Shown piece after piece: positions 8,275-64,000 of a stretch of 64,000 nt of DNA. Under the pieces are notes generated by a model. That model was given only the letters and a program-made list of their open reading frames with translations. It had not been told where the DNA came from and searched no databases. The number at the start of each line of letters is the position of its first letter. The stretch's first letter is position 1. The stretch is from Mustelus asterias (taxonomy: Eukaryota): NCBI RefSeq assembly GCF_964213995.1, contig NC_135808.1, positions 7,254,001-7,318,000 on the forward strand, given 5' to 3'. Made by a program: the position numbers and the translations under genes.

Positions 8275-8285
8275 GCTAATTTAAG

Positions 8286-8570
8286 GAGGAAGACACGTCG
8301 GAAACTCTCGTCTATGCAAAACTGAACATCAGCTGCCCGCCTACTGATAGGACTGTGTATGAGAGGGCGAGGGCGCCGGTTCAGAGTAAAAAGCCAAGAG
8401 AGACTCGGGCGGCGCCACTCCCAGACAGCAGTGGAGAATCTGTTGTGTACGCGTCATTGCGGAAGCCCGGTTACAAGAAGGAATCAATTCGGGTGGAGCC
8501 CGTGCAGACCCGACGAAGGAATGAAGAGCAAACCGTGTACGGGATAGTGAGAGTAGAACATAGAACATAG
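8286..8570 (+). CDS. Gene A last coding exon: inhibitory cytoplasmic tail EEDTSETLVYAKL...TVYERA...SVVYASL...TVYGIVRVEHRT*
   Basis: Acceptor ttctttgtgctaatttaag| at 8285. Open 94-aa frame (extends ORF 8355..8570 upstream) that is GC-rich and non-repetitive. Contains ITIMs LVYAKL and VVYASL and ITSM TVYGIV. Confidence 0.8.
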   Translation, partial: EEDTSETLVYAKLNISCPPTDRTVYERARAPVQSKKPRETRAAPLPDSSGESVVYASLRKPGYKKESIRVEPVQTRRRNEEQTVYGIVRVEHRT

Positions 8571-29404: not shown

Positions 29405-29450
29405 ATGAAACCCGCTGACCTGCTGTGGACCTCGATGTTACTATTCTTTA
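29405..29450 (+). CDS. Gene B leader exon MKPADLLWTSMLLFF (exon starts 29391)
   Basis: Acceptor tgatttccag| at 29390, gcaATG at 29405, 15 codons ending hydrophobic, phase-1 donor A|GTAAGA. Joins the V exon in frame. Confidence 0.75.
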
Positions 29451-29959: not shown

Positions 29960-30313
29960 CAACAACTGCTAGCAAGATCAAAGTGTTTCAAAAACCACCC
30001 TCCATTGTGACAACGGAGGGAAAGACAGTCTACCTTCTCTGCACTTACAACACATCTCACACTCAACAGAACGGAGCTTTCTCCTGGCACAAAAACATCA
30101 AAAATGGAACCGAAGATACCAGAGTGACAAATAAATCCGAAAAATACTCGGGTAGGATTTTCGAGGTGGACAGACCATCTTTCAAAGCCAATCGAAACGC
30201 TTCTATCGCGATCAGAAACGTGAAGCAGGATGACTCAGGCACCTATTATTGTCAGGTCGAGATATTTTTCGGCGAGAAAGAGTTTGGACCAGGAACAATA
30301 CTAACAGTTGAAC
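29960..30313 (+). CDS. NCR3: Gene B Ig V-set exon with germline-joined J segment, NKp30/NCR3-like
   Basis: KVFQKP..EG...LLC...FSWHK...GRI...DDSGTYYCQV...FGPGTILTVE. Acceptor gtcttccag| and donor C|GTAAGT, phase 1-1. Symbol denotes family resemblance, not proven orthology. Confidence 0.85.
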
Positions 30314-30716: not shown

Positions 30717-31338
30717 AATATTTTCATTCCATATTTACTCCAAAATGCGTAACCGTTATAATATTTCAGCAATATATGAGGATGACTATCTCGAAAACAC
30801 ATTTCCCAGCCTCACATTATGGGATTGAGTGAGTGGATGCAGATATGCATGCCACAAGGCACACAGCTGACATGTATTAAGTGCAATGGGTAGCCAAAGA
30901 ACAAGCAAAATAATCAGTGCAACGAAAGCCTCATGATATTACCACACACACGATAGAGAATATGTAACATGCAATTAATTTACTAGTCCAATGGCATCCC
31001 GAACAAATTGTAAAAAAAAGCCCCTTTATTCAAGCAGAAAGAAACATTGTTCAATGTTTTAGATGATGTAACAATGGCATTAAGGAATGGGCAAATTATT
31101 GAGTAAGAAGAAAGTCAACACCAGGATTAAAGTCGAACTAGATGGTCTAAGAAGCAGGATCATTAGTATACAGTAAGTTGTGTGGAGTACCACTCTGAAT
31201 GCTCAGGTACCATCTCTCGAAAACCTTCCCGCACGAGTGTCGAAGAGAATGGGGAACAAGCTGAGTGAATATCGCGGTGAGCTGCCGGAATGAATCAAAG
31301 AAACTATTTGCTGAATTTAATTGCTACCTTCTCTATAG

Positions 31339-31541
31339 ACAAGAAGCAACCCAATAACAGCGGAGGTTCGTTAATTCGGGAGTTGATTGTGATGGGAGTG
31401 AAACTTGCAGTGTTTGCTGTGTTCATCATTATAACAATATCTCTCGTGCATTCCTGCGATTCTCGAGATTCTCCTGCGTCATTTAATTCAAGTCGAGAGG
31501 AGATTAATTCATCCTGGAAATGTTACATGGAAAACGGTTAA
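31339..31541 (+). CDS. Gene B stalk/TM/short-tail exon with Lys in TM (LIVMGVKLAVFAVFIIITISLV)
   Basis: Acceptor ccttctctatag| in phase 1, open to TAA at 31541. Paralogous to 51805-51998. Confidence 0.85.
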
Positions 31542-32819
31542 AATGAACCGATTGATATTTTGGACCGTGTGTATTTACAGTTGATTCTGAAGTGAAATTA
31601 CAACTGCAATCACTGTAGCTGTTAAATGCAAACGCAAATTATGCCATACGTCAGAACGTAACTTGAGTTCAAATATGTTCGTAGTCCCTCTTTTTCTTCA
31701 TGCAGTTTCATATGAGAGTGTTTTAATATTCAAATGTGCATTCTGTGCTCTTAAACTGATGAAACCCGTTCGTTGAAGTGTGCTTTATAGGAAGTTGCAT
31801 ATATTCCACGTGCGACTTTAAATGATTTTACCTAGTGAATCAACAAAACCCATGTCAACATGCTAAGATATTCCCATGCCTTTTTTCCCCTGGGAGATAG
31901 AGGAGCTGGATAGATGCTCCAAGGTGGAATATAACATTAATGTCTTAAAAAACATTTTTTAAACACTGTGCATGCACACGCAAGTAGAACATTGTGAGCG
32001 TGTATGGGCGGCACGGTAGCATAGTGGTTACAGTGTCTCACAGCTCCAGTTCAATTCCCGGCTTGGGTGACTGTCTGTGTGGAGTTTGCACATTCTCCCC
32101 GTGTCTCCGTGGGTTTCATCCGGGTGCTCCGGTTTCCTCCAAAGATGTGCGGTTAGGTTGGTTGGCCATACTAAATTGTCCCCCATGGTGTCCCTGGATG
32201 TGTAGGTAAGAGGGATTGGCGGGGTAAATGTATGGAGTTGTGGAGGTAGGGCCTGGATGGGATTGCTGTCGATGCAGATTCGATGGGCCGAATGGCCTCC
32301 TTCTTCACTGTAGGGTTTCTACGATTCTATGATTTACCATTATAAGCGGTCGTTTCTTATGCTGTCTCCTTCGTAACCATTAAATATTAACGCGTGCTGC
32401 ATAATTTACACGTATGCTCCTCTGGAGTTCAAGTTCAGATTCTAGTTTGCAATATAGGGACGGTTTTGCTTCGTAAGAAACATTCAATTCATTGGCAAAA
32501 CTTCCCTTAAATTCAAATCACAGTCTGACAGAACAATGTTGATTTAGCAGAGAAGTCTGACTATTCTCTGCAGATGCGAATCAATGTAATTATTTTGCAC
32601 TTATTTCCATGCCTCTTCGTCAATTATGTGTTTCCGGCAGATGCAGTTCGGCATTGAAATGTTACTCAGCTTTATACACTCATTCTTCAATTAAAATAAT
32701 CGTATGTGAGGTGCAGCACAACCTATGGGCAACAACAAAGACCCGATATAGTGAAGCAACAATGTGACCTAACACCGCCTTCAAAACTAACCGTAGCCTT
32801 TTATATGTTGTCACCCTTG

Positions 32820-33410
32820 ATAGAATGGATAATCGGAGTCTTTTTCCCAGAGTAGGAATGTCAATTACTAGGGGACAAAGGTTTAAGATAAACATAGAAC
32901 ATTACAGCGCAGTACAGGCCCTTCGGCCCTCGATGTTGTGCCGACCAGTGGAACCAATCTAATGCCCCTCTAATCTACACTATTCCAACATCACCATATC
33001 CAATAACCATTTGAATGCTCTTAATGTTGACGAGTCCACTACTGCTGCAGGCAGAACATTCCACGCCCTTACTACTCTCTGAGTAAAGAACCTACCTCTA
33101 ACATCTGTCCTATATCTCTCGCCCCTCAATTTAAAGCTATGAAGGGGGAACGTATAAAGGAGATGTGAGAGGCAAGTATTTTTACAAAGGATGGTAAGTG
33201 CGCTGGCAGAGGAGGTGGTAGAAAAAGATACCCAGATACAATAGCAACGTTTCAGAGACAGCTTGACAGATACATGGATAGACGGGGAATTGACGGATAA
33301 AGACTGCATATTGGCAAAAGGCCTTCAGTTTAGAAAGTTTAGTCAGACCTCATCTGTCGACGCAGGCCTAGTGTACCGAAGGGCCTGTTCCTGTGCTGGA
33401 CTGTTCTTTG
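32820..33410. mobile_element. CR1 3' end (+) with a younger CR1 3' end nested in reverse (about 32891-33140)
   Basis: Nested copy is nearly the reverse complement of 42655-42928 (both encode [28 protein letters not shown]). Confidence 0.8.
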
Positions 33411-35883
33411 TCCTTAGTTCTTTGTCCATTCCTGATGATGTGATTCGATACTGTCTCGCGACTTTGTAACATTTTTGCCTGTTACTCCCTACCTCTTATT
33501 CTTTTGACTTTTGCAAAGGGCACTGCTGGCAAATCACTTCCAAAGTCAGCAAGGTACTTTGTTGGAAAGCAAGCGAAATCAGTCGCTTAAATCAAGGCAT
33601 AAATGGCCGATATAGACTTGAACAGCTTGATTGGCAAAGGGCAAAAGGTCATTGGCCGTAGGCAGGAATGTGGGGTTGAGGTGAATGGTGGATTGTGCAC
33701 AGTGAGAGGCTCAGTTGCCTATTCCTGCTCCTTCTCAAAAATTTGATTTTCAACAATATCGCAGCATATAAGTTTTTTTAAGTAAACCAACCTTGAAATG
33801 AAACAATGCAAATGACTTGAAAGTTTAAAGTTTATGTATTAGTCACAAGTAGGCTTACATTCACACAGCAAGATTCTGTGAAAATCCCCTAGTCGGCCAC
33901 ACTCCGACACCTGTTCGGGTGCACTGAGGGAGAATTAAGCATGGCCAATCCACCTAACCAGCACATCTTTTGGACTGTGGGAGAAAATCCATGCCAACAC
34001 GAGGAGAACGTGTGAACTCCACACAGGCGGTGACCGAAGCCGGGAATCAAACCTGGGTCCCTGGCGCTGTGAAGCAGCAGTGCTAACCACTGTGGTACCG
34101 TGCCACCCTACTTTTAGTCAAAAACTGAAAGCTCAATGAATTCAACCTGACAATGTGTGAACAATGGCTGTAAAATAGAATGCCGACTTTTTATTTCTAT
34201 TCTATAATTTAAGGCGACTTGCATTTTGCAACGTGGTGTAATTTTATTTGCATTCGCTAAAATAAGTATGAAATCTTTTTACACTTGTGTACTTGTACAA
34301 TGTTTTTCAAAAAAATCATCGTTTGAAGCTGTGCTGAATTAATGATTTTATGCTCTATTTGTATTGTCGTCACAAAACGGCATCTGGCGCCATGAGTATT
34401 TCTCATTAAACTAACCATCAATCTATCTAAAACATAATGTTTTATTTTAAATGGTTGAGAAGAATTGAGAAACAACGAGTGTCTCAGTTGCGCATCATCG
34501 TTTTATGACTTTTGCCTTTCTTCCTGGGATGTGGTCAACCATCCATCATCCGTCAGGGTTGTCTTGAGCCATGAAATGTGTTTTTACTGTTATTATCCAC
34601 GTGGGATCCGAGCCACGCTGCGTCCCGACATACGCATTGTAGCTGTTTGCACGCCCATTGCGACGAACATGAAAGCTTCCATACTCTTATTTTCCCCATA
34701 ACATCACGGAAATTGTCTGATTCATTCCTTCCAGTTTCAAAGTTTCGCCTGCTGGGATCAGGATCTTGTGATAATCAGCACCATTCGACTCCTGCCGCTG
34801 TGCTGATTTCTATCCAAACCAATTATCTATGTCTAGATTACAAATCCAGGGTTGCAGTGGGAAGCTGCCGAATAATTAAGATAACTGTTCACTTCTGATT
34901 GACAAAGCACTTCTGTTTTGCTTTTATTAATCAGCTGTATTTGTAGCTATAAATATCAACGACTGATAGAACCTCGAACCTGGCTCCTTGGGGCAGCTTG
35001 TACATATCAGGAAGCTTGTCCTTGGGTCAGAGAATATTAGTCGATGTTAGGCTTATTAACAGATATGGGCAATCAGCATCTTTCTAAGTCAGCCTAACCT
35101 ATAGAAAGATTGACAAAAATCTCTCAACAGGCCTCTTCATTATTACAGCACCAATTTGTGATGGACCAGTAAACAGGACAGTCAATGTAAAACAAAATGA
35201 CCGTGGGTCAAACTTATTTCGCATTATAACCCATCTGGCGTAACAAGCAGTCCATTCTGCTGAGCCTTACTGTTCCTCCACAAAGATGAGTGGTGTTCAA
35301 AACACTCCACTTGTGACTCGATGGTTAATGCTCTTTTCACGTGGCATGTTAACCGGATCCAGTACACAACAACTTATAATTGGCGCTGTGCCCCTTTAAG
35401 CGTTTAAGAGTTAGCAGTTTTTAGAAAAGGAGAGTTATTGGACGCAGTGTCGTTTTCATATAGCATCCAGGAAAGTTCCGCTCAGCTGTTTTGTTCTTAT
35501 ATCATGTTGCCGCAGCGAGTTGCTTAAAGGGTAGTAAAACTGCATGGTGGGGAAGTTCAGGCGATGCGAAATGAATCACAATTTTGTGTTCTGGTACAGA
35601 TCCTGCTTCCTGCTAAATAACAGAAGCGTACCTCATTGCCTTACCATTTCACAGTCTATGTTTCTCCCACAAATCGATCAAAATGTTCTCTGCATTAACA
35701 TGGGCCGTTATTTTTCATCTGCTATTTCCCCCGGTAAATGAAATATCTAATATGCATAATGAGCCCTTGAAAAAGCTATAACACTTACAAATGCTACATT
35801 GTAAGGTAATGTTGATCCATTGTGTTCCCTCGACACCGACAGCTCTGACAAATACGAGATCATGGTAATCAATTTAGAGTACA

Positions 35884-36020
35884 AAAGTCTCACAAAATCA
35901 GGTGACGAAGGAGCAGCGCTCCAAAAGCTCGTGATTCCAAATAAACCTGTTGGACTTTAACCTGGTGTTGTGAGACTTCTTATTGTGCCCACCCCAGTCC
36001 AACGCCGGCATCTCCACATC
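35884..36020 (+). mobile_element. Penelope-like terminal (pLTR) fragment with short inverted end and degenerate hammerhead core
   Basis: AAGTCTCACAA...TTGTGAGACTT inversion; TGACGAAGGAGCAGCGCTCCAAAAGC; flanked by TTAGAGTA direct repeats. Confidence 0.6.
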
Positions 36021-38984
36021 AAATTAGAGTAACGCTGCTCTCAATACAATAATTTTCAATAAATTAAATTTCAATATTAAATTAAAATCAATATATGTTA
36101 TTTCTTGAACTTTAATTAAACTGCACAGATTTGTGACCAGCAGCGAAACATCAACTGCTCTTGCCCCACCTAGTGGTGGACGCTGTATCTGTTCACATGG
36201 CAAGGTTTTCCCCGGAAGAGGTCACGAGCTTGTGGACTCATCACTGCAAAGAAACTCAAAGCTTGAGGGAGTCGCGCTTCACACAAACAGGGCAGAGCAG
36301 GCACCGCCTGCCACTGGTGCGTTGGAAAGGACGCAAGATAAGTGGTCGGATGACTGGAGCTGACGACTTCGAGATGAAAGGCGGGGATGTAACCTACTGC
36401 GCCATAATACCGCCAAGTGAATTCACGCTTTATTGCGCATACGCCTGTCCTCACACATTCTATGGGGCTTTGTATTCGAATTTATCATCGAATCATAGAA
36501 GCATTCAGTGAAGAGGAGGCCCTCCGGCCCATCTAGTCTGCACCAATACGTATGAAACACCTTGAGTTCCCAGCCAGTACTATTCACCAGCACGTGGCCC
36601 ATAGCCTTGAATGTTATGATGTGACAAGTGTTCATCCAGGTGCTTTTTAAAGGTTGTGAGGTGGCCCACCTCTACCACCCTCCCAGGCAATGCATTCCAG
36701 ATCGTCAAAACCCTCTGGATAAAAATGTTCTTCCTCACACTCCACCCCCTCCCCCGCCCCCCCTAAATATCCTGCCCCTCACCGTGAACTTGTGTACCTT
36801 CAACTAAGGGGCACAGCTTCTCCTTATCCACTCTGTCCCTGCCCCTCATAATCTTGCAGTGATTAGAATTTGAAAAGCAAATCAGTTCGATGTAAAGGGT
36901 AGAGTCATATAGGCGGGATTTTACGGCCTCGCTCGAGCGAGACCGGAAGTTGACGCCCGAGGTCAAGGGACATTTCCACTGTTCAGCCCTCGCCCGCACC
37001 AATTCCGTGGTGGGCGGGGCGATCGAATCGGCAAAGTCATGCAGCGCATTAAAAGGCCTTTCTGCCCATCCAGTATGAACCGACAAAACATAGCACTAAA
37101 TTCGCACTAATCCCATTTTCCAGCACTTGTCCCATACCCTTGAAAGTTATGATGTTTCAAGAGCTCATCCAAATACGCTTAGAAGGTTGTAACATTTCGG
37201 TCCCCCACTTCCCAGGCAACTCATTTCAGATTCCCAAAACCTTTTGAATGAAAAACTGTTTTCTCAAATCCCCTATGAATCTCCTGATCCTTACCCTAAA
37301 GCTATGCCCACTCCTGATTGATCCCTCAACAAAGGGGAACAACTACTCCCTACTCAATCTGTCCATACCCTCATAATCTTATACAGCTTAAATATGCCTC
37401 TCCTCACCAATCCCCCCCTCCCCCCACCTCACCCCCGCCTTCTCTGCGCTAGAGATAACAATCCCAGCCTGACCGGCCTCTCTTCGTAGCTGAATTGCTC
37501 CATCTCAGGCAACATTCTGGCGGATCTCTTCTCTACGCTCTCCAGTGCAACGCTACCTATAGTGACATTATACAATTGCCCTCTAGGAGGTATAATTAAG
37601 CTTTTCTAACATTGCTGAAAGTAAGACTGCATTTTGAGTTTCCTCTTGGGGCAAACTAAGGATATAGGACCTTTGTAAACAGGGAGGGCAATTGTATATT
37701 CTTCTGAATCCAGTAATTTGAAGAACCCATACTGGGGTACAAAGAGTCTGAAACAGGAGGCCTAAAGTAGATTACGTAATCTGAAGCCAAAGCAGGCAGA
37801 GAAAAGGAAATAAAGAAGCGGATGGAACTAATGTGGCAGCGACAAAAGGCAGAAAGAATAAGGAAAGAATACTTTTTCAAGCACTCAACAATAATCAAAA
37901 GCAGATAGAGTCTTACCCTCCACTTGGAAAAGTAATTTTCGAGTGTAAGTGAGCGTGGCACAGTTGTTCACATTGTCATCTGACAGAGCCAGGGACCTGG
38001 GTTCAATTCCGATCTTGGGTAACTGTGTGGAGTTTTCACCTTTTACCCATGTCTGTGCGGGTTATCTCCAGGTGCTTCGTTTTCCTCCCACATTCCAAGG
38101 ATGTGTGTGTTAGGTTGATCGGCCATGCTAAATTACCCCTTAGTGTCAGGACGATTAGTAGGGTAAATACATGGGGCTACCGGGATAGAGTCTGCCTGGG
38201 ATTGTTGTCGGTGCAGGCTCGATGGGGCAAATGGCTTCCTTCAGCACTGTAGGGATTATAAGATTCAAAAATCCTAAATGTTTAGGACTTATTCAACCGT
38301 TAAAATGAAAGCACAGTGAAACAAAATTATATATTTTTCTCACGTCTTTAGTGGGAGTAAAACTTTATCTTAAATCATGAAACTCAGTGTGACTCGCATT
38401 CGTTTAACATTGACACCCCTAACTAGATTGGAGTCAATATTTCACTGATTTCAGAGCATAAGTTCTAGTTCTTCATGCGATAGTCTGCAATGACATCGAA
38501 TCACATCAGCAGCCATTGTTTCCTGGCCCTGAATTCAAACAGGGTGTTCAATATCCAGGTTCGAAAGCCAAATTTAAAAAATGATGCTCCAAAGAAGTAC
38601 AAAATGATGCAGTGAATAAATATTTCAGGTCTGGATTACAAATTGACTAACAGATAGAAAGCAGAGAGCAACAAGAAACAGATCATTATCAGCATGGCAG
38701 TCTGCTATTACTGGTGTGCCGCAATTGGGCTAAGGTTGTTTCAGTCTATATAAATGAAGTGGATGTGGACAGCAAATGCAGTCCTACCAAGTTTCCAAAT
38801 TGTATTCAGTGCAGTTTTTCTCTCCTCATCTAAAGAGGGATATAGTTGCCACAGGAGTGCAACGGAGGCCTATCAGGCTAATCCTTGTGATTAATGTTTG
38901 CATAAATTGTCTCTGTATACATTTTCAAGAAATGAGAGTTGATATCGCTGGAACTTACAAAATTCTTACAGGCTGTGACAAGCT

Positions 38985-39965
38985 TGAGGAATCTCAAGGA
39001 GTTGGTTTGCAGGTGCAGCAGGTAATTAACAAGTCAAATGGAATTTTGTCCTTCATTGCTAGAGGGGTGGAGTTTAAAAACAGCGAGATTATGTTGCAGC
39101 TGTATAAGGTGCTGGTGAGGCCACACCTGGAGTACTGTGTAGAGTTTTGGTCTCCTTACTTAGAAACATAGAAACATAGAAAAACTACAGCACAAACAGG
39201 CCCTTCAGCCCACAAGTTGTGCCGAACACATCCCTACCTTCTAGACTTACCTATAACCCTCCATCATATTAAGCTCCATGTACTCATCCAGGAGTCTCTT
39301 AAAGGACCCTATTGAGTTCGCCTCCACCACCCCTGACGGCAGCCGATTCCACTCACCCACCACCCTCTATGTGAAAAACTTACCCCTAACATCTCCCCTG
39401 TACCTACCCCCAGCATCTTAAACCTGTGTCCTCTCTTACTTGAGAAAGGATATACTGGCAATGGAGGGGGGTGCAGAGGAGATTCACGAGGTTGATTCCA
39501 GAGTTGAGAGGGTTGGCTTATGAGGAGAGACTGAGTAGACTGGGGCTATACTCATTGGAATTCGGAAGAATGAGGAGAGATCTTATAAAAACATATAAGA
39601 TTATGAAGGGAATAGACAAAATAGAAACAGGGAAGTTGTTTCCACTGGCGGGTGAAACTAGAACTAGGGGGCATAGCCTCAAAATAAGGGTAAGCAGATT
39701 TAGGACTCAGTTGAGGAGGAACTTCTTCACACAAAGGGTTGTAAATCTGTGGAATTCCCTGCCCAGTGAAGCAGTTGAGGCTACTTCATTGAATGTTTTT
39801 AAGGCAAGAATACATACATTTTTAAACAGTAAAGGAATTAAGGGTCATGGTGAGCGGGTGGGTAAGTGGAGCTGAGTCCACAAAAAGATCAGCCCTGATC
39901 TTATTGAATGGCGGAGCGGGCTCGAAGGGCCAGATGGCCTACTCCCGCTCCTAGTGCTTATGTTC
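38985..39965 (+). mobile_element. CR1 LINE 3' part with nested reverse CR1 (about 39162-39432)
   Basis: ORFs 38776..39171 and 39471..39875. Confidence 0.85.
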
Positions 39966-40515
39966 TCATGACAGGGTAAATGTGGATGGGATGTTTCCCC
40001 TGCCTGGTGAGTCTGGAGCAAGGGGACATTGTCTCGGAATCAGGGGCAGTCCATTTAAAATTGAGATGTGGAGGAAGTTCTTTACTCGGAGGGTGGCGAC
40101 TCTTTGGAAATCACAACCCCAGGGGGCTGTGGAAACCTAACCATTGAGCAGGTTCAAAACAGAAATCGTGAGAACATCTGGGTGCCAGTGATATCAAGGG
40201 ACATGAGGATCATGGGGGAGTCTGGCATAGAGATAATCAGCCATGACCTGTTTCAATCGAGGAGTAGGCTCGATGGGTCAAGTGGCCTCCTGCTGCCCTT
40301 ATTTCCTATGTTCTTATGTCACAGACTCCGGGAGCAAGTTGGAAAAGCTTTGTGGAGGCAATTTCCGATTTGCTCAGTTGGTAGTTAAGGGAGCTCCCGA
40401 ATCCCACACTGGCTGATGGTATTTTATAATATTGTTCATGTACTATTTATTTAACAAAGGAAACATTCAGTTGTCGCAAAAGGAACAAACACATTTGCTA
40501 ACAAAAGCGTATGCT

Positions 40516-40537
40516 TATATATACATATATAAATATA

Positions 40538-40573
<36 letters not shown>
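40516..40573. repeat. (TA)n microsatellite
   Basis: Seen directly. Confidence 0.9.
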
Positions 40574-40579
<6 letters not shown>

Positions 40580-41299
40580 AGAATTTGAAAAATGGTGCCT
40601 GACAAATTAAGAAAAACTTTTAGGGAACTTCAAACTTGTGTTTTAATTCACAAGTTTCAGTCTGTACAGGAAGACTTAGCTTCCGGTGTCTGCTTGTTGC
40701 AGACGATACGATCACATACTGATTCACTGCGACTGATACTATTTTGCGCAGGAAAAGGTTTGCAGCGAAAATAAATGCAGCCTTTTCAGAAACCACCTTT
40801 GCACAATTTTCGCGAAATTAGGAACAATGATTCTCGGAACATTTGCTTCCAATTATAACTTCAGTTTCAGATTGAGTGTCTGGCCATGGTGGACATTTCA
40901 CAAGTATTCTTCTGAAACCTTTGTTTTACCAAAAGCTTGAAACTTCTAACACTTTAAGAGCAAGCATTTGGAGATTGCAATTTCGACAGGAGTGACACTC
41001 CATTTCGTTATTCTGCTGATAAATATCCATTAGGAACGAATCTTGCAAGGACAGGAATGAAGCAGATGGTTGCATATTCACCCAAAGCAAGAATACTTGG
41101 AAAACTGTTCGCAGTTCAACGGGATTCGCTTCCCACTTTCACATATTTACTGGTCTTTCATAGCGAGATATTACACTATTCTGTGTGCATGAGAAAAGCA
41201 CTTCAGTTTCACACCCCCTTTCCCTGCCCTTCAAGGAAGTGCTGACACATCCCTTTAGATTCTGTGAAGCATCCGGTTTTCCAACCGTGTTCCATAAAT

Positions 41300-41374
41300 G
41301 ATTTTGTTACAGCAAAAGCAATAGGAAAATGCAGAGATCTCAATGCAAATAATGCACGTTGCTGCCAAGTTAAG
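41300..41374 (+). other. Probable first (5' UTR) exon of gene C; start position uncertain
   Basis: Consensus donor AAG|GTAAGT at 41374|41375 in unique sequence; same architecture as gene B. Confidence 0.45.
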
Positions 41375-41639
41375 GTAAGTCAAGCTTTACCTTTAGTAAA
41401 GCAGCGGACATTTCTGAGTCCCCCTGGCTGACATTTAACTATTCTTATTCGCAAATCAGACAGGGTATGGAGAAATGGAAGGTCAAGCTTTTGTCTAACA
41501 AGAAAATCGATGAGACCTGGGTGTTGGGCAAGGGAACATTTGTTGTTGCTTTGCTAAACCATTTCAGAGTTAATTATAACCACGCTGCTGTGGACCGGCA
41601 GTCACATGTAGGGCAGACCGGTAAGTTTGGCAGATAAGG

Positions 41640-42125
41640 AGACAGGCCAGGGACGGTTCACTAGGTTGATCCCAGGTATGGTGGGAGTTTCCTATAAGAA
41701 GAGATTGAATAGGTTTTGAGTCTGTACTCGTTGGAGTTTAGAAGAATGAGGCAATCTTATTAAGATATATAGGATTCCCAAAGGGCTTGGCAGCGTAGAT
41801 GCTGAAAGGTTGTTTTCTCTTGTGGGGAGCCTAGGACGAGAGGGTATAATCTCAGAATAAGGGGTCGCCGTATAAAACAGAGGTGAGGAGGAATTTCTTC
41901 TCTCAAAGGGTAGTAAATTTGTAGAATTCTTTCCTGCAGAGTGCTGTAGAGGTTGGATCGTTAGTATATTCAAGGATGCGATAGATAGATTTTTAACCAG
42001 TAAGGGGATCAAGGTTTATGGGGATAAAGTGGGAAAGTGGAGTTGAGATTATCACGTCAGATCAATCATAATATCACTGAATGTTGGAGCAAACTCGATC
42101 CGCCTAGCTCTGCTCCTACCTCTCA
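41640..42125 (+). mobile_element. CR1 LINE 3' end
   Basis: RFTRLIPG / YSLEFRRMR / RRNFFSQRVV coding remnants. Confidence 0.8.
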
Positions 42126-43891
42126 TGGATTCCTTCCCTAAAAGACATTAAAATAAAAGTAAAGTTTATTTGTTAGTCACAAATAAACTTACATTAACAC
42201 TGCAATAAGGTTGTTGTGAAAATCCCCTAGTCACCACACTCCGGTGCCTGTTCGGGTACACCAGGGAGAATTTAACATGGCCAACGCATCTAACCTGCAC
42301 ATCTTTGGACTGTGGGACGAAACCGAAGCACCCGGATGAAACCCACGTAGACACAGGGAGAATGTGCAAGCTCCAAACAGACAGTGGCCCAAGCCGGGAA
42401 GTGAACCCAGATCCCTGTGAGGCAGCAGTGCTAACCACTGTGCCACCCCCAACTGAAACCGATGAGTTTTACAATTGAAGATCGTTTCAAGATGACCATA
42501 ACTCAGGCTACAATTCAAATCCCGATTTTTTATTGTTAATTGAATTTAAACTTGGTGTTACTAGCAAGGACCTGTTTCTCATCCCAAATTACCCTTGAAC
42601 TGAATGGCGTGCTAGGTCATTTCAGAGGACACAGAGTTGATTACGCTGCTGTTAACACGAGGGGACATAGCTTTAAATTGAGGGGTGAGAGATATAGGAC
42701 AGATGTTAGAGGTAGGTTCTTTACTCAGAGAGTAGTAAGGGCGTGGAACGCCCTGCCTGCAGCAGTAGTGGACTCGTCAACATTAAGAGCATTCAAATGG
42801 TTATTGGATAAACATATGGATGATATTGGAATAGTGTAGATTAGAGGGGCTTTAGATTGGTTTCACTGGTCGGCGCAACATCGGGGGCCGAAGAGTCTGT
42901 ACTGCGCTGTAATGTTCTATGTTCTATGCTGTGGTTCAGGAGTCACGTGTAGGCCAGACCGGGTAAGGACCGCAGAATTTCTTCCTTGATGTTTTTTTTT
43001 CAACAATGATAGTTTCATGATCACCATTCCTGAGACCAGTTTTAAGTTCCTGACTTATCAACGTCTCCAGAGCATGAGCCCGATCGCTGTATTACGCGCC
43101 CAGCCACCTTCCATCGTCTTGCTTGATATTAACATCTTTGAACTGTAGGAGGAAACCGGAGGACCCGGAAGAAACCCACGTACATAAAGGGAGAATGTAC
43201 AAACCCCACACAGCCATCCAAGGCCGGAATTGAACCCCTGTCCCTGGCGCTGTGAGCCAGCAATGCTCACAAGTGCCTTCAGTTGCTCAGCAATGGTCAC
43301 ATGAGTATTTATATTTATTTTTCATGCCGTATTCCTCTATAAACATACCAGAAGCACAGTTGGAACTTAAGCAATCCCCACATATACAAATGTCTTTGCC
43401 CAGCATGAATCACACTACATGTTTACCGTTCCAGGCACAGAAACACTAAATTAAACACACTTAAAGATATGCCTTATCTCTAATGTTGATCAATTTCAAT
43501 ACAAACCCCTTAAAACTGTCTTTGTTTTCCTTAAAGATAAATACTTAGAGGTTACGATCAAGACTCAGTGTATTCGGCCCAACCAGTTCATATTAGATAT
43601 TGCCTTTGAGCTGTGTTTCTGCATTTACCCTGGATTTCCGCCATTTTCTGCCCCAAACGTTGGAGGACAAGTAGTGGGATCTGGCGGTGTTTCGTTTACA
43701 TATATGTAAAAAGAAAATCTGTACAGAATCGAGCGACCGATTTCGAAATTTATCCCTGAGCAGCAGTTCGCTAACTTGGAAAGGTAAAATATCACGTTTA
43801 AAAACTTTCACAAAAAGTTAAGAAAATCCACTCCAATTAAAATTGTGGTTACAAATCTCTTCTTTGCCTTCACAGACAAAAATAGAAAAAA

Positions 43892-43931
43892 ATGTTTGCC
43901 GATGCTATAATTGGTGTACTGTTGATTGCTG
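43892..43931 (+). CDS. Gene C leader exon MFADAIIGVLLIA (exon starts 43876)
   Basis: Acceptor tctttgccttcacag|, aaaATG, 13 hydrophobic codons, phase-1 donor G|GTAAGT. In frame with the V exon, giving ...LLIA-AVAIA-DFKV. Confidence 0.8.
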
Positions 43932-46478
43932 GTAAGTGTTGAACTTATTTGTCACATTTTTTACATTTGGTAATGGGATGTGGATATCACTGGCAAGGTC
44001 AGCATTTATTGCACACCTTTGGAAGTTGGTGGTGAGGCGCCATCTTTATCCATCCCAACCTTTGTGATGAAACTACACCCACAGTGCTGATGGGAGGAAG
44101 TTCCAGGATTTAGACCCATCGTTGTGACGGAACACCAATATTGCTCTAAATCAGGGTGAAATGAAAGTGCTGGGGTTGCTATTTGTCTTTTTCTTCTGAG
44201 GTGGCCAAGGTTGGGAATTTGGACAGTGCAGTAGAAGGAGGCTTGGATAGTTGCTGTAGTGCATCTTGTAGATTTCAGTGTGCAACAATGGCAGGTGGAC
44301 CCAAGGTTTGAGGTGATCAATAGGCTGCTGATCTGGTGGGCTGCTGTTTCCAAGATAGTGGGAAATATCTGATGTTACAGTCAACTAGACAAGCGGGAAA
44401 TATTCTATCACACTGCTGACTTGCACATTGCAGGTGCTGAACAGGCTGGAGTCAGGAAATGAGAAATGTGCCACAGAACAACAACATTCAAGCGGCTCCT
44501 CCAGTTAAATTTCTGCTCAACGATAACCAGCAGAATATTTTGGTGGGGACTTTAAGATGATAATGCTGTTGAATGCTAAGAGGTAGGGGAGGGGAAAATA
44601 ATGATTGGCAAGCACTTGTTCAGAACGAATGTTGCCTATCACTTCTCAGCCCAAGGCTAAACATTGTCAAGTCTTGCTGACTATGGACACAGAATACTAC
44701 AAGATCTGAGAGTTGTGAGCGGTACTGAACATTCAACAGTCATCTGCGCATATCTCTCTTTATGGCCTTACGATGTAGTGATAAAGCAAATGAAAGTTTG
44801 GCCCACAGCATTGCATTGAGTAAATATTGCTGCTTGTCCTGGGCTCAAATGGTTGGGCATTCCACAACTAGGCCCATCCTCTTTCGAAGTAGACGTGACA
44901 CCAACCAATGATGTGCTTCTACAGATTTCAGTAGTTTTTTCCTGTACAGTCCGATGTCACACCTGGTCAAAGTTTGACTGAATACCAGCAAAGTTTCCAG
45001 GGGATTTTTACAGTAACTCCCTTCTGGTGTTAATGCAAGCCTACTTGTGACACCAATAAATAAACTTTAAAAAATGCTGATTGAATATCAAGAGCAACTT
45101 CTCTCACCTCATCACTGGGAATTTGCTCTTTTGACCATTGCTGGACAAAGGCCTCAGGGATAACTGGGCCCAACAGGTCCTGATGAAATCCAAACCAACA
45201 CAGGTGAGCAGGTTATTAAACCGTCCCTTGATGACATTTTCGAAACCTTCTATCGATTTGCTGCTTGTTTAGATTAGAATTTCGGGGCAACATTAACTGG
45301 ATCTGCATGCATCCCACCAGGTCTTAGGTAAGCAAATTCCACCGTTTTGGGTGTCTGCCAGTTTTGCAGCTAGACTAGCACAGTCTGACTCCGGCATGGT
45401 TTGTTAGGGAGCATAAACCATCAGTCCAACAGCTGAGATGTTATCAGTTCCTCAAATGAGGGTGGCACAGTGGCAAAATGATTAGGACTGCTGCCGCACC
45501 GCTCCAGGAACCTGGGTTCGATTTCGGCCTGTGTGGAGTCTGCACGTTCTCCCCGTGTCTGCGTGGGTTTGCTCCGGGTACTCTGCTTTCCTCCCACAGT
45601 CCGAAGGTGTGAGGGTTAGGTTGAATGGCAATCGTAAATTGACCCATAATGTCTATGTGTTAGCAGGGTAAATAAGTGTGGTTATGAGGATAGGGGCTGG
45701 GTGCGATTGTGGTCGGTCTGGACTCGATGGGCCAAATGGCCTCCTTCTGCATTATAGGGATTGTATGATTCTATGATTCGGATTACCTGAAGACTGGCGT
45801 CTGTAAAGGTGAAGCTCTGAAGAGGAATCCCAGATAGATCCTCCAGTTCACAATTCTAGGCCCAGATGGTTAGAAACCTTTCAAGCTTGCTGTGCGCTGA
45901 AGGGCTGAACATTCAGCCAGGGAGCATGGGAAATGCCTGTGCAGCCTCCTTCAGCCAGGGAGCATGGGAGATGCCTGTGTCGCCTCCTTCAAGCTGCTGA
46001 CTGGGAAGCACGGCAGAGAGCTGAGCTGACCAGCTTGCTTTGGATCGCCTGGCGCTATTTATAACATTCTGCTTGTATGTACTCCGATGTACTACCTTCG
46101 CCAGATTGACACCTCCTTATAGGGTCTGTCTGATACTGTTCCTGGAATGATCTCCTAAACTCCTCAATGAACTGGCAAAATAATGCCGTCACTCTGTGAA
46201 CAGTTTGATGTTCTTGGCACTGGCTCAGCGGGGGTCAAGGGATGGCAATGTACAATATGTCACTTGGATAGGAACTTGAATGTACCCGAGAATTCGCATC
46301 GTCGATTGAAGGAAATTCGATTGTCATGTAGCCTCTGAAAGTTGGGGGATGTGAGTGGGAGTTCTTTGTTTGAATTTGTGATTAACCGCATTTGAATTCT
46401 TTACCAGTGGTCAGGACAGCAGTTTGGAGTGTGGAGTAAGTTTGTCTAACAAGGATAATTGGAGTCTCTGTTTTACAG

Positions 46479-46820
46479 CTGTTGCTATTGCCGACTTCAA
46501 AGTAACTCAAAGCCCAGAGGTTATCGAAGTAATAGAAGGAGAGGAGTTTCAAATCTCCTGTACATTTACTGCGTCTAAAGTGTCATCGGTCTTTGGATTC
46601 AGCTGGTACAAGCAAACATCAGATCGTGAAAACAGTTTTGTTTCGAACACATCTGAAGGATGTTTTGGTCGGGTTTTGCGGAAACGTGAACAATATTTAA
46701 ACACCGAACAAATTACAGTCATAAAGGCAAATCGGAATGATTCCGGCATATATTATTGTGAAGTGGATTTGCTGGCAGTTGGCAGAGGAACCGGAATGGG
46801 CACACGGGTAACTGTTAAAG
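46479..46820 (+). CDS. NCR3: Gene C Ig V-set exon with germline-joined J segment, NKp30/NCR3-like
   Basis: KVTQSP..EG..FQISC...FSWYKQ...GRV...NDSGIYYCEVDLLAVGRGTGMGTRVTVK. The end resembles the NKp30 motif CRVEVLGLGVGTGNGTRLVVE. Acceptor ttttacag| and donor AAG|GTACGT, phase 1-1. Symbol denotes family resemblance. Confidence 0.88.
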
Positions 46821-46919
46821 GTACGTTTCTATGTGCTACCATCTGCCTTTCTTTACAATTATTCTTTTCAATAACAAATCAAACTAATTATTCCTACACT
46901 ATCCACTCTAAAATTATCC

Positions 46920-47495
46920 CATAGAATCCCATAGAATCATTACAGTGCAGAACGAGGCCATTCGGCCCATCGAGTCTGCACCGGCCAGAGTCCCACCCAG
47001 GCCCTATTCCTGTAACCCCATGCATTTACCCTAGCTAATCCCCCTGATACTAAGGGTTAATTTAGCATGGCCAATCCACCTAACCTGCACATATTTGGAC
47101 TGTGGGAGGAAACTGGAGCACCCGGAGGAAACCCACACAGACACGGGGAGATTATGCAAACTCCACACAGATAGTGACCCGAGGCCGGAATTGAAACCGG
47201 GTTCCTGGCATTGCGAGGCAGCAGCTCAAACTACTGTGCCGCCGTGCTGTCTGTGTGGAGACTGCACATTCTCCCGGTGTCTGGGTGGGTTTCCTCCGGG
47301 TGCTCTGATTTCATCCCATAGTCCAGAAGATGTGCGCGTTAGGTGGATTGGCCATGCTAAATTGCCCCTTAGTGTCGGGGGATTAGCTAGGGTAAACGCA
47401 TGAGGTCACGCGGATAGGGCCTGGGTGGGATTGTGGTCGATGCAGACGCAATGGGCCGAATGGCCTCCTACTACACTGTAGGGAATCTATGATCC
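46920..47495. mobile_element. Head-to-head HE1-type SINE pair just downstream of the gene C V exon
   Basis: - copy at about 46920-47245, + copy at about 47247-47495. Confidence 0.8.
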
Positions 47496-50382
47496 TTTAA
47501 TTCTGAGATAATGGTTATGAAGAACATTTGGAGATGAACATTCATTTACTTAATTATATAGCTAAATAATTTGCTTCAGATGTACTCCATCAAAGCATCC
47601 ATTCCAACGTTGTTTCTATATTAGCCCGGAGCATACAGTTAAATGTGTAAATCGACGAATCGCATTTCAATGTGTCTGGCAATTTGATTTTTTTCTGGGT
47701 ATAATGCCGTGGGCATAACGGCAGGAAACCCGATTTTTAATCTGAAACGGAAAAAGGGCCGATCGGGGGAACAGGGCCCCTTAAGCTGAACACCACCAGC
47801 CCCCACCCTTCCTACCGCTCCCCCTCCTAAAGCGACCCTATTCCTCCTGATTGCCCCGAACACTCCCAAAACCTCTAGCCCCAAGACCCCGGGAATACTT
47901 TCCCCGGATATAATGGGCTTTGGACTCCTCTCTTCACCTGCAGTCCAGGCAGCTAACATTCACGCCTTCCAATTGGATTGATCAGATCCAATGTGAGACG
48001 GGTGTCCCACTGAGCACTTAGCTCTCGTTCAAGAGCCCCGCAATGCTTTATGGATGCGGGGCTGGTTGGCGCGGAGCCAGTCGGCTTCCGGCCTACGTCA
48101 TGTGCGGGGAGGAGGATGTCATCGCCCCTTGTATTATTCACCCCATTGTATCTATCATTCTGCAACACTGGCCTCCCGATTTACATCCTTTCACTATTGG
48201 AAGCCTTGCACTGCAAGGTCGCTCGGTCCTGGATTTATGTCCCTCCTACCCCTCTCTCCCACTCTTATCTTTTATTCCACTTTAATAAACCGACATATTT
48301 GATCGCCCTTTTGAACAACTTTATTTGACATCTTGGTTGGGTCCGTGTCAAAAATGGTAGAAATACCTTTAGTTGGTATTGTTGTTGTTCAGCCTGACGT
48401 TCATGGGTATCCCTGTTTTATTTAAAATCAATTGTGGCCATAAGTATGAGCTTGACTTGATGCTGACACGCAAATATGTGTACACATACATCTCTTCAAC
48501 CATAGGAATATGGGCATGTGTTTGTATTCGATATTGCTGATTCTTCCTAATCAAGTAGCATCTTCCATTTTTCCAAAGTCAACAATCATGGCTGACCTTG
48601 GATTTTTGCTAAGGAGTAGAGAGAGGAGGCAGGTCACAAACCCACTTCAGCTGGAACCAGAATCGACCCCAACGCACTTGGCGTTATGCTAGCACACACA
48701 CACACATACCGGACGGCCAGCCAACTGAGGTTGCCTTCCCCATACGTTAGGTACATATGAATAAGCAGACACACACGTTTGGTACATTTCAGTTCACCTC
48801 AGCTATACCGAGCAAAGACACATATATGGAGCTCGGTCACATGTCTGCCATGATTCCATTGAAAAACGGAAGGTGCAGAAGGACATCAATTGCCTCATCC
48901 TATTCCTAGCCATAGCTCTAAATTTATCTCTTGCTGCGATCCCCGGGGAGGCTGATAATCCTTACCAACAATCCCGCATTTCCAGTTAATTGCCGAAAGG
49001 TCAACAGGTCAACATCTCATGTTTTAAAACTTTGACTGTAACAAATCACTATTGACTGAACACTATTCTTTTTGTGTGCTCCTTACACTTTAAATGTCAG
49101 AAACTGATGTTTCCCTTTTTGTCTTCATCACACTCTACAATGAATTACAGGATTTTTGGTGGCCCGAGTCCCGGGTTCGATTCCCGGCTTGGGTCACTGT
49201 CTGTGTGGAGTTTGCACGTTCTCCCCGTATCTGGGTGGGTTTCCTCCGTGTGCGCAGGTTTCCTCCCACATTTTGAAAGACGTGCTAGTCAGGCGCATTG
49301 ACCCGAACAGGTGCCAGACTGTGGCGACTCGGGGAATTTCACCGTAACTTCATTGCAGTGTTAATGTAAGTCTTACTCGTGACTCATAAATAAACTTCAA
49401 CACAGTCCACGGTCGCTTCCTGTTTCCAATGGGTTGTCCTAAAATAGCAACTACGGGTGATCAGACAAGAGGAAGTGTCTATTCAATCAATGACCATCTC
49501 TTCTGTCATTTGTCTGGAGTATCTCACAAAGCCAAGCAGCCTCTTTTTTTTTGCTGACCACACAGAACTGCCGTCTGCCTGTGATATTCGATAATTTGTA
49601 GGGAAGCCTTTAAATTGGTGTCAGGATTGATTTTTTCTGCCCTCTTCTCCGTGACAATGTGGAACGCATTAGCTTCGTCCCGAGGTAGAAATGCTAACTT
49701 GTCATTCTGGACGGCAACTTCCTTTCATCTTAGCGGTAAATAGACAGTTTACAGCGCAACTGTTTACAACTCGGTGCTTCAGTACCTTTCTGGGCTATTG
49801 GAAGTCTCGGAGTGTGCAGACTGTAAGCTCAGAGACTGATATAATTTCCTCCAAAAGAAATGCACTCGCTATTCATTTCTATAATCTAAGCCTCCCTTTG
49901 ATCTGTAAGAATGAAACCAATGAAGCCGATTCTCGGGCAGACTGCAGAACAGGTCACATGACCCAATTCACTTACGTTTAAAGCTACAGACCCAAAGCTA
50001 TAATAATCTTATGCACCTCATAATTCCCACCACCCTTTATTGACGAAGGAAACATTGCTCAGTCCTCTGAATCAGATCATAGCACTAAAGGACTGAGTAA
50101 ATGAGGGGAAGTTAACATCAGCGTTCAGGTCAAAGTGGGAGGACTCAGGTGAATCACTGCCGCAAAGTTGGCTTTGATTTGATTTGTATTATCACATATA
50201 TTGGTTATATAGTGAAGAGTATTGGCTCTTGCGCGGAATACAGACAACGCATGTCGTTCATATAGTACATGGGGCGAAGGAAAGAAGAGGGTTTAGAATG
50301 TAGTGTTATAGTCATAGCTAGGGTATAGAGAAAGATTAACTTAATATAAGGTAGGTCCATTCAAAAGTCTAAAGGCAAACTG

Positions 50383-51505
50383 CTGCGGTTGCTGGAACTG
50401 GAAACAAAATAGAAAATGCAAGAAAATCGCACTTGGTCTGACGGCATCTGTGGAGCCAGAATAGAGCCTGGCCGGGATTTTATGACCTCGCTCGGCGAGG
50501 CTCGTAAAGTCCCGCCCGAGGCAACGGAGAATTCCGTTCTGCTAGCCTTACCCGCCCCAATTCCGGAGCGGGCGAGATGGTTTCGAGTCTGGATGACCAT
50601 TCGTCAGAGCTGAGAGCAAAGAAAACCAGGCGAGATTTATACTATGAAGGTGGGGAAGGTAGTTGGACGGAGCAAATGTAAGTGGTGAAATATGCTCAAA
50701 GTTTCCATCAAGTAATCGAAATGTATGAATGGCAGAACTAGGCACAGATTGTTAAAGACCACTTGAGGAATATGGAAGTTGCCCTGAAGGCGGAGAGGGA
50801 GGTGGGGGAGGGGTGGGGGGTGTTGGAGATAAGGTGGGGAGCGGGATTTGAGAAATTGAAAAATAGAAGTACGAATGAAAGCTGATAAAAATGGGTGAGT
50901 GAGATGAAAAGAAAAAATGAAATAAAATAAATGGAAATGGGGTGGATGTGAAGGAGGAAGTTCATGCCTTGAAGTTGTTGAACTCAATCTTCAGTCCGGA
51001 AGGCAATAAAGTGCCCAATCGGAAGATGAGCTGCTGTTCCTCCAGTTTGCGTTGGGGTTCGCTAGAACATTGCAAATGGCCGAGGATGGACACGTGGACA
51101 TGAGAGCAGGGTGGTGTGCTGAAATAGCAAGCGACAGGAAGGTCTGGGTCCTGCTTGCAGATGGACCAAAGATGTTCTACAAAGCGTTCACGCAGTCCGT
51201 GTTTGATCTCTCTAATGTAGACTAGACAGGAGAGTACATCGAAGGCACCAAACGCAGACTGTGAGATCTCTTTAATCCTGTTCTGCCATTTACACATTCC
51301 AATCCCTTCATGGACACTTTTAGCACCTTTCTCAGCCTTTGTCATCATCATTTACATTTCCTTTGTCCAACTACAGCCCCCCTCCCCCCATCCTCATAGT
51401 ATACATCTGGTGTGATTTTCATTGCTCCCCTTTCAGCTCTGATGAATGGATATCCAGACTCAAAACGTTGACCTGCTGATATTTTCCAGCATTTTCTGTT
51501 TCCGG
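50383..51505 (-). mobile_element. Penelope-like element: GIY-YIG C-terminus with inverted pLTR
   Basis: ORF 50962..51351 (VYIREIKHGLRERFVEHL...RKLEEQQLIFRLGTL..GLKIEF). Inverted hammerhead-like motifs at 50579-50612 (-) and 51434-51470 (+). Confidence 0.75.
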
Positions 51506-51804
51506 TCAAAAGTCCAATGGCAACAGGGAAGAAACTGTTCTTGAGTCTGCTGTACGTGATCTTAGACTTTTTAAAATCTTTCTCCCAACGGAAGAAGGTG
51601 GAAGAGAATATGTTCGGGGTGTCTGGGTTCCTTAATTGTGCTGGCTGCTTTTCCGAGGCATCCAAATTTGAATACAATAGCTATCAACAACCTGCGGTGC
51701 ACCAATACGCACCAAATTGGTAACACAATTCGTGACTATTTCGATAAGTTAATCGAGTGAAATGAATAAAAGAATTGCTATATTTGACTGTTCGTTCCCT
51801 ACAG

Positions 51805-51998
51805 GCCGGGAGGAGCACGACAACACTGGATGTTCGCTGCAAAGGCAGCTGATTGCGATGGGAGTGAGACTTGCAGTGTTTGCTGTGTTAATCATGATAA
51901 CGATATCTCTCGTATATTGCTGCGAGTTTCGAGGTTCTCCTACTACAGAGCGTGAAGAAGCTACCACACCTGGCAGGCATCCCATGGTAAAAAGTTAA
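51805..51998 (+). CDS. Gene C stalk/TM/short-tail exon with Arg in TM (LIAMGVRLAVFAVLIMITISLVYCC)
   Basis: Acceptor ttcgttccctacag| in phase 1, open to TAA at 51998. AATAAA at 52515-52520. Confidence 0.85.
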
Positions 51999-54019
51999 AC
52001 TGAACCGATTGACACTTTGGACAAATTGTATTTGCAGTTCATTATAAAGTGGCAGCAGAAGTGATTTCTTTTTTAGTTTATTTATCAGCGTCACAAGTAG
52101 GTTCACCACTGCATTGAAGCCACTGTGAAAATCCCCTAGTCGCCACACTCCAGTGCCTGGTCGGGTACACTGAGGGCGAATTTAGCTTAGCTAATGCCCC
52201 TAACCAACGCGTCTTTCGGACTGTGGGAGGCAACTGGAATACCCAGAAAAACCCACGCAGATACGGGGAGGACGTGAAAGCTCCACACAGGCAGTGACCC
52301 AAGCCAGGAATCGAACTCGGGACCTTGGCTGTGTGAGGCAGCAGTGCTAACCACTGTGCCACCCTGCTGCCCATGGTTCTAGCTGTTAAATGCAAACGTG
52401 GAGAAGCATGTACAGTCTGTCCCAACGTCACTTGTGTGCGGGCACGATCATATGCCCTTCATTATCTCTCCCGCCACCACCCCCCCAATCCCTTTTATAT
52501 TTAAGTGGTTTACTAATAAAACATTCTATTCTGTGTTATTGTCGATAGTCCATTAGATGGCGCAGTCATTGCCAATTTCATATGTCTCGGGTTCCCATTT
52601 TAAGTAATTTTATCTCCTAATTGCTGGAAAAAAAACTGACATCGATACATGTTAACGCTCTTACACCATGTTGTATTTTCCCCCCAGCGAAGACGGGAAA
52701 AGATGACAAGAGTCATACAATGACAATCGTATAAGGAACAGAAAACCACATGAAGGAACAAGCGGAAGATCTATCACTCATTATAAGCGAACATTTGTTG
52801 TATTTTCTCCTTCATTATCATTAAATGTAAATATGTGCTATAAAATATACAATGTATGCAGCTCTGTAGTCCAAATTCCGATGCTAGCCTGCAATACAGG
52901 AAAGAGGTATGCTTCATTGAGGGACATTCAGTTTCATAGAAAAAGCAAGGAGAATTCAAACTTAGCAAAGCATGACTCTTCATCGCAGAGAATGAAACAT
53001 GGATTTATTTTCGATTTTTCTTGTCCTTTTCTCTAAGTATTTGTTGTCGACTTTTCTGATGAGCATTGAACTTACTCCGCTTTGCACGCTCGCTCTGCAA
53101 GTGAAGAAACCTTATATGAGGTTCGACAGAGTCTATGAGCAACAGGAGTCCTATCGTTAGCCAACAATGAGATTTAACACCTTTTGAAGCAAATGGTGTC
53201 TTGTAGGTAACCTTTTATGTATTGCCACCATGTTTCCTGATGCGATTTGATACGGGATCAGCACCTTGTAATAGTTGTGCTTGTCGCTCCCTACCCCTTG
53301 TCATTTTGACTTATCAAAGACATGCTGACATGGTGGCATGGTGGCACGATGGTCATCCGAATTTGGGTGACAGTCTGGAGTTTGCACGCTATCCTCCCAC
53401 AGTCCAAAAATGTGGAGGTTAGGTTGATTGGTCATGCTAAATTGCCCCTTAATGTACATAGATGTGGAGGTTAGGTGGATTGGTAAATACTCGGGTTTAT
53501 AGGGATTGGGCCTTGGTGAGATGCTCTTTCAGAGAGTCGATGCAGAGGGGCCGAATACTGTAGGGTTTCTATGATTCTAAAGATCTGCTAACCCATATGC
53601 ACACAGATATAAACTGTAGCTTAAATCAAAACTAAACAACATGAAACTGATTATAACTGGGCCATATGCAAAATTCTAATTGTAACGAATACTGCCACAT
53701 GGAGCTTTTTAAAGTAAATCCGTTTAAAGTGAAATGACCGAGTATTGTCACAGACTCTCTCATTACAATCAAAGACTGAAACCTGAATGAATTCAATCTG
53801 GCAATGTAGGAACTATGGACTTGAAAATAAAGCACATAGTTCAGATCAACCTTTGCTTCTATTCGATAAAGTAACGATGTCTGCACGTCACGAGGTAACT
53901 TTTACTATCTTAGACATACTTTGTAATGTTTGTCTGAGCTTTGTTGTGGATTATGCTTAATTCATTTTTTCTTCGCCATATATTGGAAGCGATACGTTTA
54001 TTCAATAAGTCAATCATCT

Positions 54020-63913: not shown

Positions 63914-64000
63914 TTAGGAAACGAACCATTGGGCCGATCCAGCTCGTGTTTGATTGTGCCCCTCCTGGCGTGTTTCCATTTCCTCCCTGGGTTTGTGCAG

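Follow-up and report, generated by a model that had tools for sequence, protein, structure and literature searches.

In humans, NCR3 (NKp30) is a single activating gene. The transmembrane (TM) arginine of human NKp30 pairs with TCR-zeta or FcR-gamma (PMC5371597), and a membrane-proximal arginine is the mark of this adaptor class (PMC4258407). The nurse shark has eight NCR3 accessions, and NCR3 is described as a non-rearranging VJ gene linked to the major histocompatibility complex (MHC) (PMC12227049, PMC10751288). The genes of paired receptors such as KLRC/NKG2 and PIR lie next to each other, resemble one another in their ectodomains and carry signalling modules of opposite effect (PMC3210942), and the activating KIR of cattle combine an inhibitory ectodomain, by recombination, with a common short tail carrying a TM arginine (PMC4258407). 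Here we analyse a window of 64,000 nucleotides from the shark Mustelus asterias (contig NC_135808.1, C8 below; C8:7254001-7318000 of a 3.68-Gb genome), which contains two genes of interest, B and C, and is followed by a third, D. Judged by sequence, B, C and D are NCR3/NKp30-like genes on the MHC class I contig. Gene C is very probably a hybrid, in which the leader, V exon and first part of intron 2 are of D type and the TM exon and 3' untranslated region (UTR) of B type; for this hybrid origin together with a predicted activating role opposite D we estimate a probability of about 0.8.

The exons of the three genes, and the two units of the tandem duplication from which C would derive, are given below in window coordinates, continued past position 64000 for D.

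29405..29450, plus strand: B leader exon, with a GT donor in phase 1; its top match is to the nurse shark and bamboo shark leaders.
29960..30313, plus strand: B V exon, a single VJ-type immunoglobulin exon (Pfam V-set, E 9e-19).
31339..31541, plus strand: B TM/tail exon, with a lysine near the outer TM end, a short tail and a stop.
43892..43931, plus strand: C leader exon, D-type.
46479..46820, plus strand: C V exon, VJ-type and D-type (Pfam V-set, E 1.5e-11).
51805..51998, plus strand: C TM/tail exon, B-type, with an arginine near the outer TM end, a short tail, no tyrosine motif and a stop.
51999..52520, plus strand: predicted 3' UTR of C, B-type, with AATAAA at 52515 and an insertion like a short interspersed element at ~52069-52377.
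64232-64265, plus strand: D leader, past the window end, inside duplication unit 2.
66353-66694, plus strand: D V exon, past the window end, inside duplication unit 2.
74885-75013, plus strand: D TM exon, uncharged, outside duplication unit 2.
From 76817, plus strand: D small exon, outside duplication unit 2.
From 83305, plus strand: D last exon, outside duplication unit 2, with three ITIM-like motifs (VVYADL, VVYAAV, VVYGMV), ITIM standing for immunoreceptor tyrosine-based inhibitory motif.
31289..48514, plus strand: duplication unit 1, comprising the B TM exon and 3' UTR, intergenic DNA, the C leader, the C V exon and the 5' part of C intron 2.
51761..~73958 (window part to 64000), plus strand: duplication unit 2, holding the D leader and V exon.
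48515..51760, no strand: interval of C intron 2 that holds the chimeric junction, with D-type sequence up to 48514 and B-type from 51761, consisting partly of repeats.

The 5' half of C has its relative in D. A genome search with the V of C gave two matches and no further close copy, and a 69% match 2.4 kb downstream of the window end identifies gene D, the V exons of C and D lying 20 kb apart. A database protein from M. asterias (P0004) has a V identical to that of D and the same exon content. The V domains of C and D share 79 of 113 residues (85.8% nucleotide identity), with synonymous and nonsynonymous divergences (dS and dN) of 0.149 and 0.159 (dN/dS ~1.07), and include among their differences four consecutive substitutions in the loop preceding the J-like motif. 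The block containing the C leader (43835-43972) likewise matches the D leader region (64175-64306, E 2e-10). By contrast, the TM exons of C and D match at just 6 of 42 residues and are not alignable.

The 3' half of C is instead that of B. A sequence-only reading of the window had noted signalling exons about 88% identical between B and C beside V domains sharing about 34 of 112 residues and leaders that could not be aligned, and most of these counts are reproduced: the TM cores (31392-31475 and 51858-51941) mismatch at 10 of 84 nucleotides, as it had reported, the V domains have 35 of 113 residues in common (49% nucleotide identity, dS ~1.5), and the leaders match at 3 of 13 residues. The figure of 88% describes the best stretch, while over its full length the coding part of the TM exon agrees at 146 of 189 positions in a DNA alignment (77%) and at 31 of 63 residues. 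One of the two 3' UTR blocks that it had paired (31538-31586 in B, 51995-52043 in C) matches at 40 of 49 bases; the other gives 5 of 20 as originally placed and 19 of 20 when shifted by one base, to 52378-52397. At E 3e-34 the TM block match is not due to chance, and a genome search at the DNA level with this exon returned two matches, B and C, the corresponding protein search returning three, of which two were significant and the third had E 3.3. The positive TM charge is conserved from B to C despite the change of lysine to arginine. Nothing but repeats is common to the introns and leaders of B and C.

These two relationships lie on a single stretch of colinear DNA. In a 464-kb self-comparison, supplemented by a repeat-masked sensitive comparison, 16 of 34 hits fall on one strictly ordered diagonal (31289-48514 against 51761-73958), giving ~17 kb of ordered homology that runs from the TM exon through intergenic DNA, leader and V exon into intron 2, with copies 70-90% identical. 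Among hits with E<1e-6, nine of 11 are on the diagonal and the remaining two are inverted; five of the diagonal hits have E values of 0.003-0.03, and two are individually insignificant. Upstream of 31289, in the acceptor region of the B TM exon, there is no diagonal hit. Since the unit runs from the B TM exon to intron 2 of the next gene, its duplication would leave C a hybrid. The breakpoint, for which the sequence-only reading had proposed an intron dot-plot, lies within 48515-51760 and is not resolvable to the base. Between the two ends of the unit the identity of non-coding DNA does not differ: it is 474/613 (77.3%) in the blocks that follow the TM exon and 438/564 (77.7%) in those of intron 2 (Fisher p 0.94). 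This is what one event predicts; the absolute values are inflated because the blocks were picked by BLAST.

Separate trees of the V and TM exons, with dS, had also been proposed, and the histories conflict. Foreign sampling comprised four proteins only: nurse shark NCR3 QTT61904.1 (P0003), bamboo shark XP_043533736.1 (P0002), and catshark XP_038644574.1 (P0001) and P0005, the last named 'NCR3-like'. A 30-row V tree unites C with D (96/87), with the two catshark V domains as the sister pair of C and D, and places B with the nurse and bamboo sharks (97/95). Topology tests on a 12-row subset, with 18 rows omitted for speed, reject a V clade of B and C (approximately unbiased test, p-AU 8e-10) and the placement of C with the B clade (4e-5). 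In the TM protein tree, which has eight rows and 47 columns and is too short to resolve B and C, C groups with the TMs of B and of the two orectolobiform sharks (93/98), D groups with that of the catshark (99/98), and a TM clade of C and D is rejected (p-AU 2e-4).

We therefore propose, as a mechanism, that two genes existed before the event, B with a charged TM and D with an ITIM tail, and that a single ~20-kb tandem duplication with both ends in intron 2 of B and D, probably through unequal crossover, would have converted the B-D array into B, hybrid and D, the hybrid receiving the 5' half of D and the 3' half of B. Anti-Lepore-type hybrids also arise by unequal crossover; their order is parent-hybrid-parent, and the hybrid takes its 5' part from the downstream gene and its 3' part from the upstream one. 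C resembles them in gene order and in its 5'/3' make-up, but its parents are very distant paralogues (B- and D-type V ~33% identical) whose introns cannot be aligned at the breakpoint, which makes a repeat-mediated or non-homologous crossover likely. Selection would since have maintained the intact C frame. Of the explanations offered by the sequence-only reading, exon shuffling that places a charged TM module on a divergent V is supported, but a local conversion of the TM exon gives way to the ~17 kb of ordered homology, which marks a tandem duplication. Extreme diversifying selection on its own is excluded by the nearly saturated silent sites between the V exons of B and C.

In the junction interval of C we also observed an ~890-base element (window 50580-51466) with ~160-base inverted ends of 70% identity, to which pieces at C8:7163964-7167084 are related. 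The intergenic DNA between C and D holds, on the minus strand at window 54355-56030, a long open reverse-transcriptase frame that we take to be of CR1/L2 type.

The predicted function of C follows from its TM arginine, a residue through which human NKp30 also pairs with its adaptors, and from the presence of adaptor-family matches in the genome, where a search with the zeta/FcR-gamma TM family gave three matches, two of them over the cut-off. The arginine would pair with an adaptor of the FcR-gamma or CD3-zeta type, and C would activate the cell on a ligand resembling that of D, such as a pathogen mimic or a self ligand of the B7 family. The ITIMs of D would recruit SHP phosphatases. C is thus predicted to be activating and D inhibitory, with related binding faces.

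Several observations count against the combined proposal of a hybrid origin and an activating role. C was not among the hits in the protein collection (1 hit for four candidates; 2/143), whereas D was; B was likewise missing from its own search (2 hits of 3). The V dN/dS fits relaxed constraint as well as it fits diversifying selection. Silent divergence is not uniform, the proportion of synonymous differences (pS) being 0.37 (95% confidence interval 0.22-0.54) for the full TM exon against 0.135 (0.06-0.21) for V, and V-flanking DNA is 85% identical against 77.5% for distant blocks (p 0.007); to account for this, the proposal has to assume in addition either that V was later converted or that the tail is poorly aligned, and a later conversion confined to the V exon may have partly homogenised V. 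A same-orientation repeat at both breakpoints was sought and none was found, although a 170-base stretch of N in B intron 2 could conceal one. Just four foreign proteins polarise the event. Finally, the TM data neither establish nor reject a clade of B and C (p-AU 0.48), and they also fail to reject one of C, D and catshark (p-AU 0.154).

The same duplication could have left C as a silent or recently disabled by-product and no activating partner of D, as its absence from the protein-search hits and the V dN/dS would allow. The TM core, where dN exceeds dS, points the same way, as does the precedent of cattle, in which five of six activating KIR are non-functional (PMC4258407). The frame of C is intact, however: with canonical GT/AG sites and both junctions in phase 1, it stays open from the leader through V to the TM exon, for 191 codons with one terminal stop, and AATAAA follows. 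If C had evolved neutrally, ~7 frameshifts would be expected in its lineage from the indel rate of the non-coding blocks, and none is present (probability of zero, P0, 0.0009); the lack of an internal stop is weaker evidence, with a neutral chance of 0.10-0.23. As the positive TM charge has also been retained through the K-to-R change, we regard a by-product as unlikely.

A second alternative, corresponding to the conversion model of the sequence-only reading, takes two steps, with the whole of D duplicated and the TM and tail of the copy then replaced by conversion from B. It would explain the local 88% peak in the TM core and the heterogeneous silent divergence, and patchy conversion is documented in paired receptors (PMC3210942). 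We consider it improbable, since the TM exon, only 77% identical overall, is continuous with several kb of colinear downstream intergenic blocks of equal divergence, and a search between B and D for a remnant of a D-type TM or ITIM exon, which might have been left after C, found none.

A tandem duplication is by itself silent on which gene is older, and the arrangement in C might in principle be ancestral, with B or D the recombinant. The outgroups make this very improbable. The V of B shares 79 of 116 residues (68%) with that of the nurse shark protein and 83 of 116 with that of the bamboo shark, and its TM matches the TM region of nurse shark NCR3 at 20 of 37 residues; in both of these orectolobiform sharks a B-type V is linked to a B-type TM with lysine. 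In catshark protein P0005 a D-type V is followed by an uncharged TM and two ITIM-like motifs, and the V exons of C and D are each other's closest relatives, with the catshark V domains outside the pair. As each parental combination is thus found in other sharks, C is, on these comparisons, the derived gene, and the duplication likely postdates the split from the catshark lineage. Whole-gene paralogy of B and C, with V exons driven apart by extreme positive selection, or a misassembly of C, agrees with the raw B/C contrast only and is scarcely credible given the V dS of ~1.5, introns and leaders common only in repeats, and copies that at 70-90% identity are too diverged for assembler confusion, this divergence being the sole assembly support.

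Two of the sampled proteins carry other names. P0001 is called 'IgSF11-like' in the database and P0002 'cd79b' in its source; we dropped both names, as both V domains group with NCR3-named proteins. P0002 is the orthologue of B and of nurse shark NCR3, and its label is likely a misannotation. P0001, from a contig of 51.8 kb, has a second D-type catshark V; its model lacks a TM exon and ends in residues that resemble read-through into an intron. In the catshark it could have arisen independently as a partner of P0005.

Returning to the proposed hybrid, C and D are neighbouring genes with closely related ectodomains and, by sequence motif, opposite signalling modules. With a TM arginine and a short tail in C, and an uncharged TM and three ITIM-like motifs in D, the pair has the predicted features of an ordinary paired-receptor layout. 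The sequence-only reading had seen in B and C the reverse of the paired-receptor pattern; the partner of C is instead D, which lies outside the window and has a similar V and an ITIM tail, and the pattern in B and C is, in our analysis, a known by-product of paired-receptor formation and not its opposite. The likeness to KLRC/NKG2 and PIR extends to a possible later conversion confined to the ligand-binding exon (PMC3210942). Siglec-11/16 is reported as a further case of paired receptors that have homogenised ligand-binding domains. The V domains of C and D differ from these in being only 70% identical, with a four-residue loop change, so that a common ligand is not assured. As in cattle activating KIR, C would owe its short tail and TM arginine to recombination; in cattle the short tail is a homologue of the long one and has a disrupted ITIM (PMC4258407), whereas the TM exon of C comes from a neighbouring gene, cannot be aligned to the TM of D and is conserved in distant sharks. 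C further differs in tracing to one tandem duplication.

Membership of the NCR3/NKp30 family is supported by several features. B, C and D each have one open V exon with a Pfam V-set domain and a GxG J-like motif, and the likeness to human NKp30 and nurse shark NCR3 lies in the single non-rearranging VJ exon, the leader/V/TM layout, the positive TM residue and the MHC class I linkage. Human NKp30 is matched at E 3e-9 by B and 8e-8 by C, values at which antibody chains score alike. In the family test B joins the nurse shark NCR3 clade, and C and D are sister to catshark P0005; the top Atlas cluster for D is 'NCR3-like' (0.97). The NCR3 trait of a positive TM residue with a short tail is present in B (lysine) and C (arginine) and absent from D. 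Membership of the CD28 family (PMC11599192) was considered and set aside, B, C and D being without the proline CDR3 (complementarity-determining region 3) motif. Differing from human NCR3, Mustelus has a multigene family that includes ITIM members (A, described below, and D) and the hybrid C. In the literature we found no report of chimeric or ITIM-paired shark NCR3; Kinlein et al. 2021 and Flajnik et al. 2012, which were outside the scope of the search, may already describe ITIM members.

Thirteen single-exon V genes of VJ type form the cluster in which the window lies (C8 7.15-7.59 Mb), and a further 12 V exons are found at C8 20.39-21.17 Mb, making 25 in the 864 kb scanned. All 140 of 140 MHC_I matches are on C8, the nearest at 3.66 Mb and the main block from 21.6 Mb; a genome search for MHC class II beta gave no matches and is uninformative on linkage. 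The second NCR3-like cluster (12 V exons; 20.39-20.60 and 21.13-21.17 Mb) sits immediately ahead of the large block of MHC class I (21.6-24.7 Mb) and includes two near-identical gene copies 750 kb apart.

Gene A has its V at C8:7250391, before the window, and a TM exon across the window start (1-92) whose lysine comes late in the TM; its last exon, at ~8285-8570, has three ITIM-like motifs (LVYAKL, VVYASL, TVYGIV). With A2 it forms a ~25-kb whole-gene duplicate pair (C8:7220829-7237138 and 7246183-7262441; V exon 84% identical in nucleotides), A2 having an arginine at the outer TM end, a shorter tail and weaker tyrosine motifs. A2 and A may be a second activating/inhibitory pair, one that would have arisen by point changes. 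Window 13950-15225 contains a 244-base inverted repeat pair of 96.7% identity. At C8:7396625-7572283 there is a ~175-kb inverted duplication of ~80% identity with four related V genes, of which the V exons at 7420009 and 7451081 are 89% identical across the arms, suggesting conversion.

The mechanism proposed here is already known, and C is itself a predicted gene, which limits the weight of the finding. We suggest tentatively that MHC-linked NCR3/NKp30 in sharks may form a KIR-like paired system, in which C would record how a functional activating partner arose in a single step, by a duplication that brought an old, conserved activating TM under the V domain of an inhibitory receptor, and the V domains would later have been shaped by conversion and ligand-driven change. 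The birth of a paired receptor would be unusually legible at this locus, where both parents flank the hybrid, the copied unit can be followed along the DNA and the direction of change is read from outgroup proteins. The activating-from-inhibitory pattern described in mammalian KIR would thereby reach cartilaginous fish and also NKp30, a family known as activating. The finding would make B, C and D a testable trio for the study of ligands and signalling in shark natural killer-like cells or T cells.

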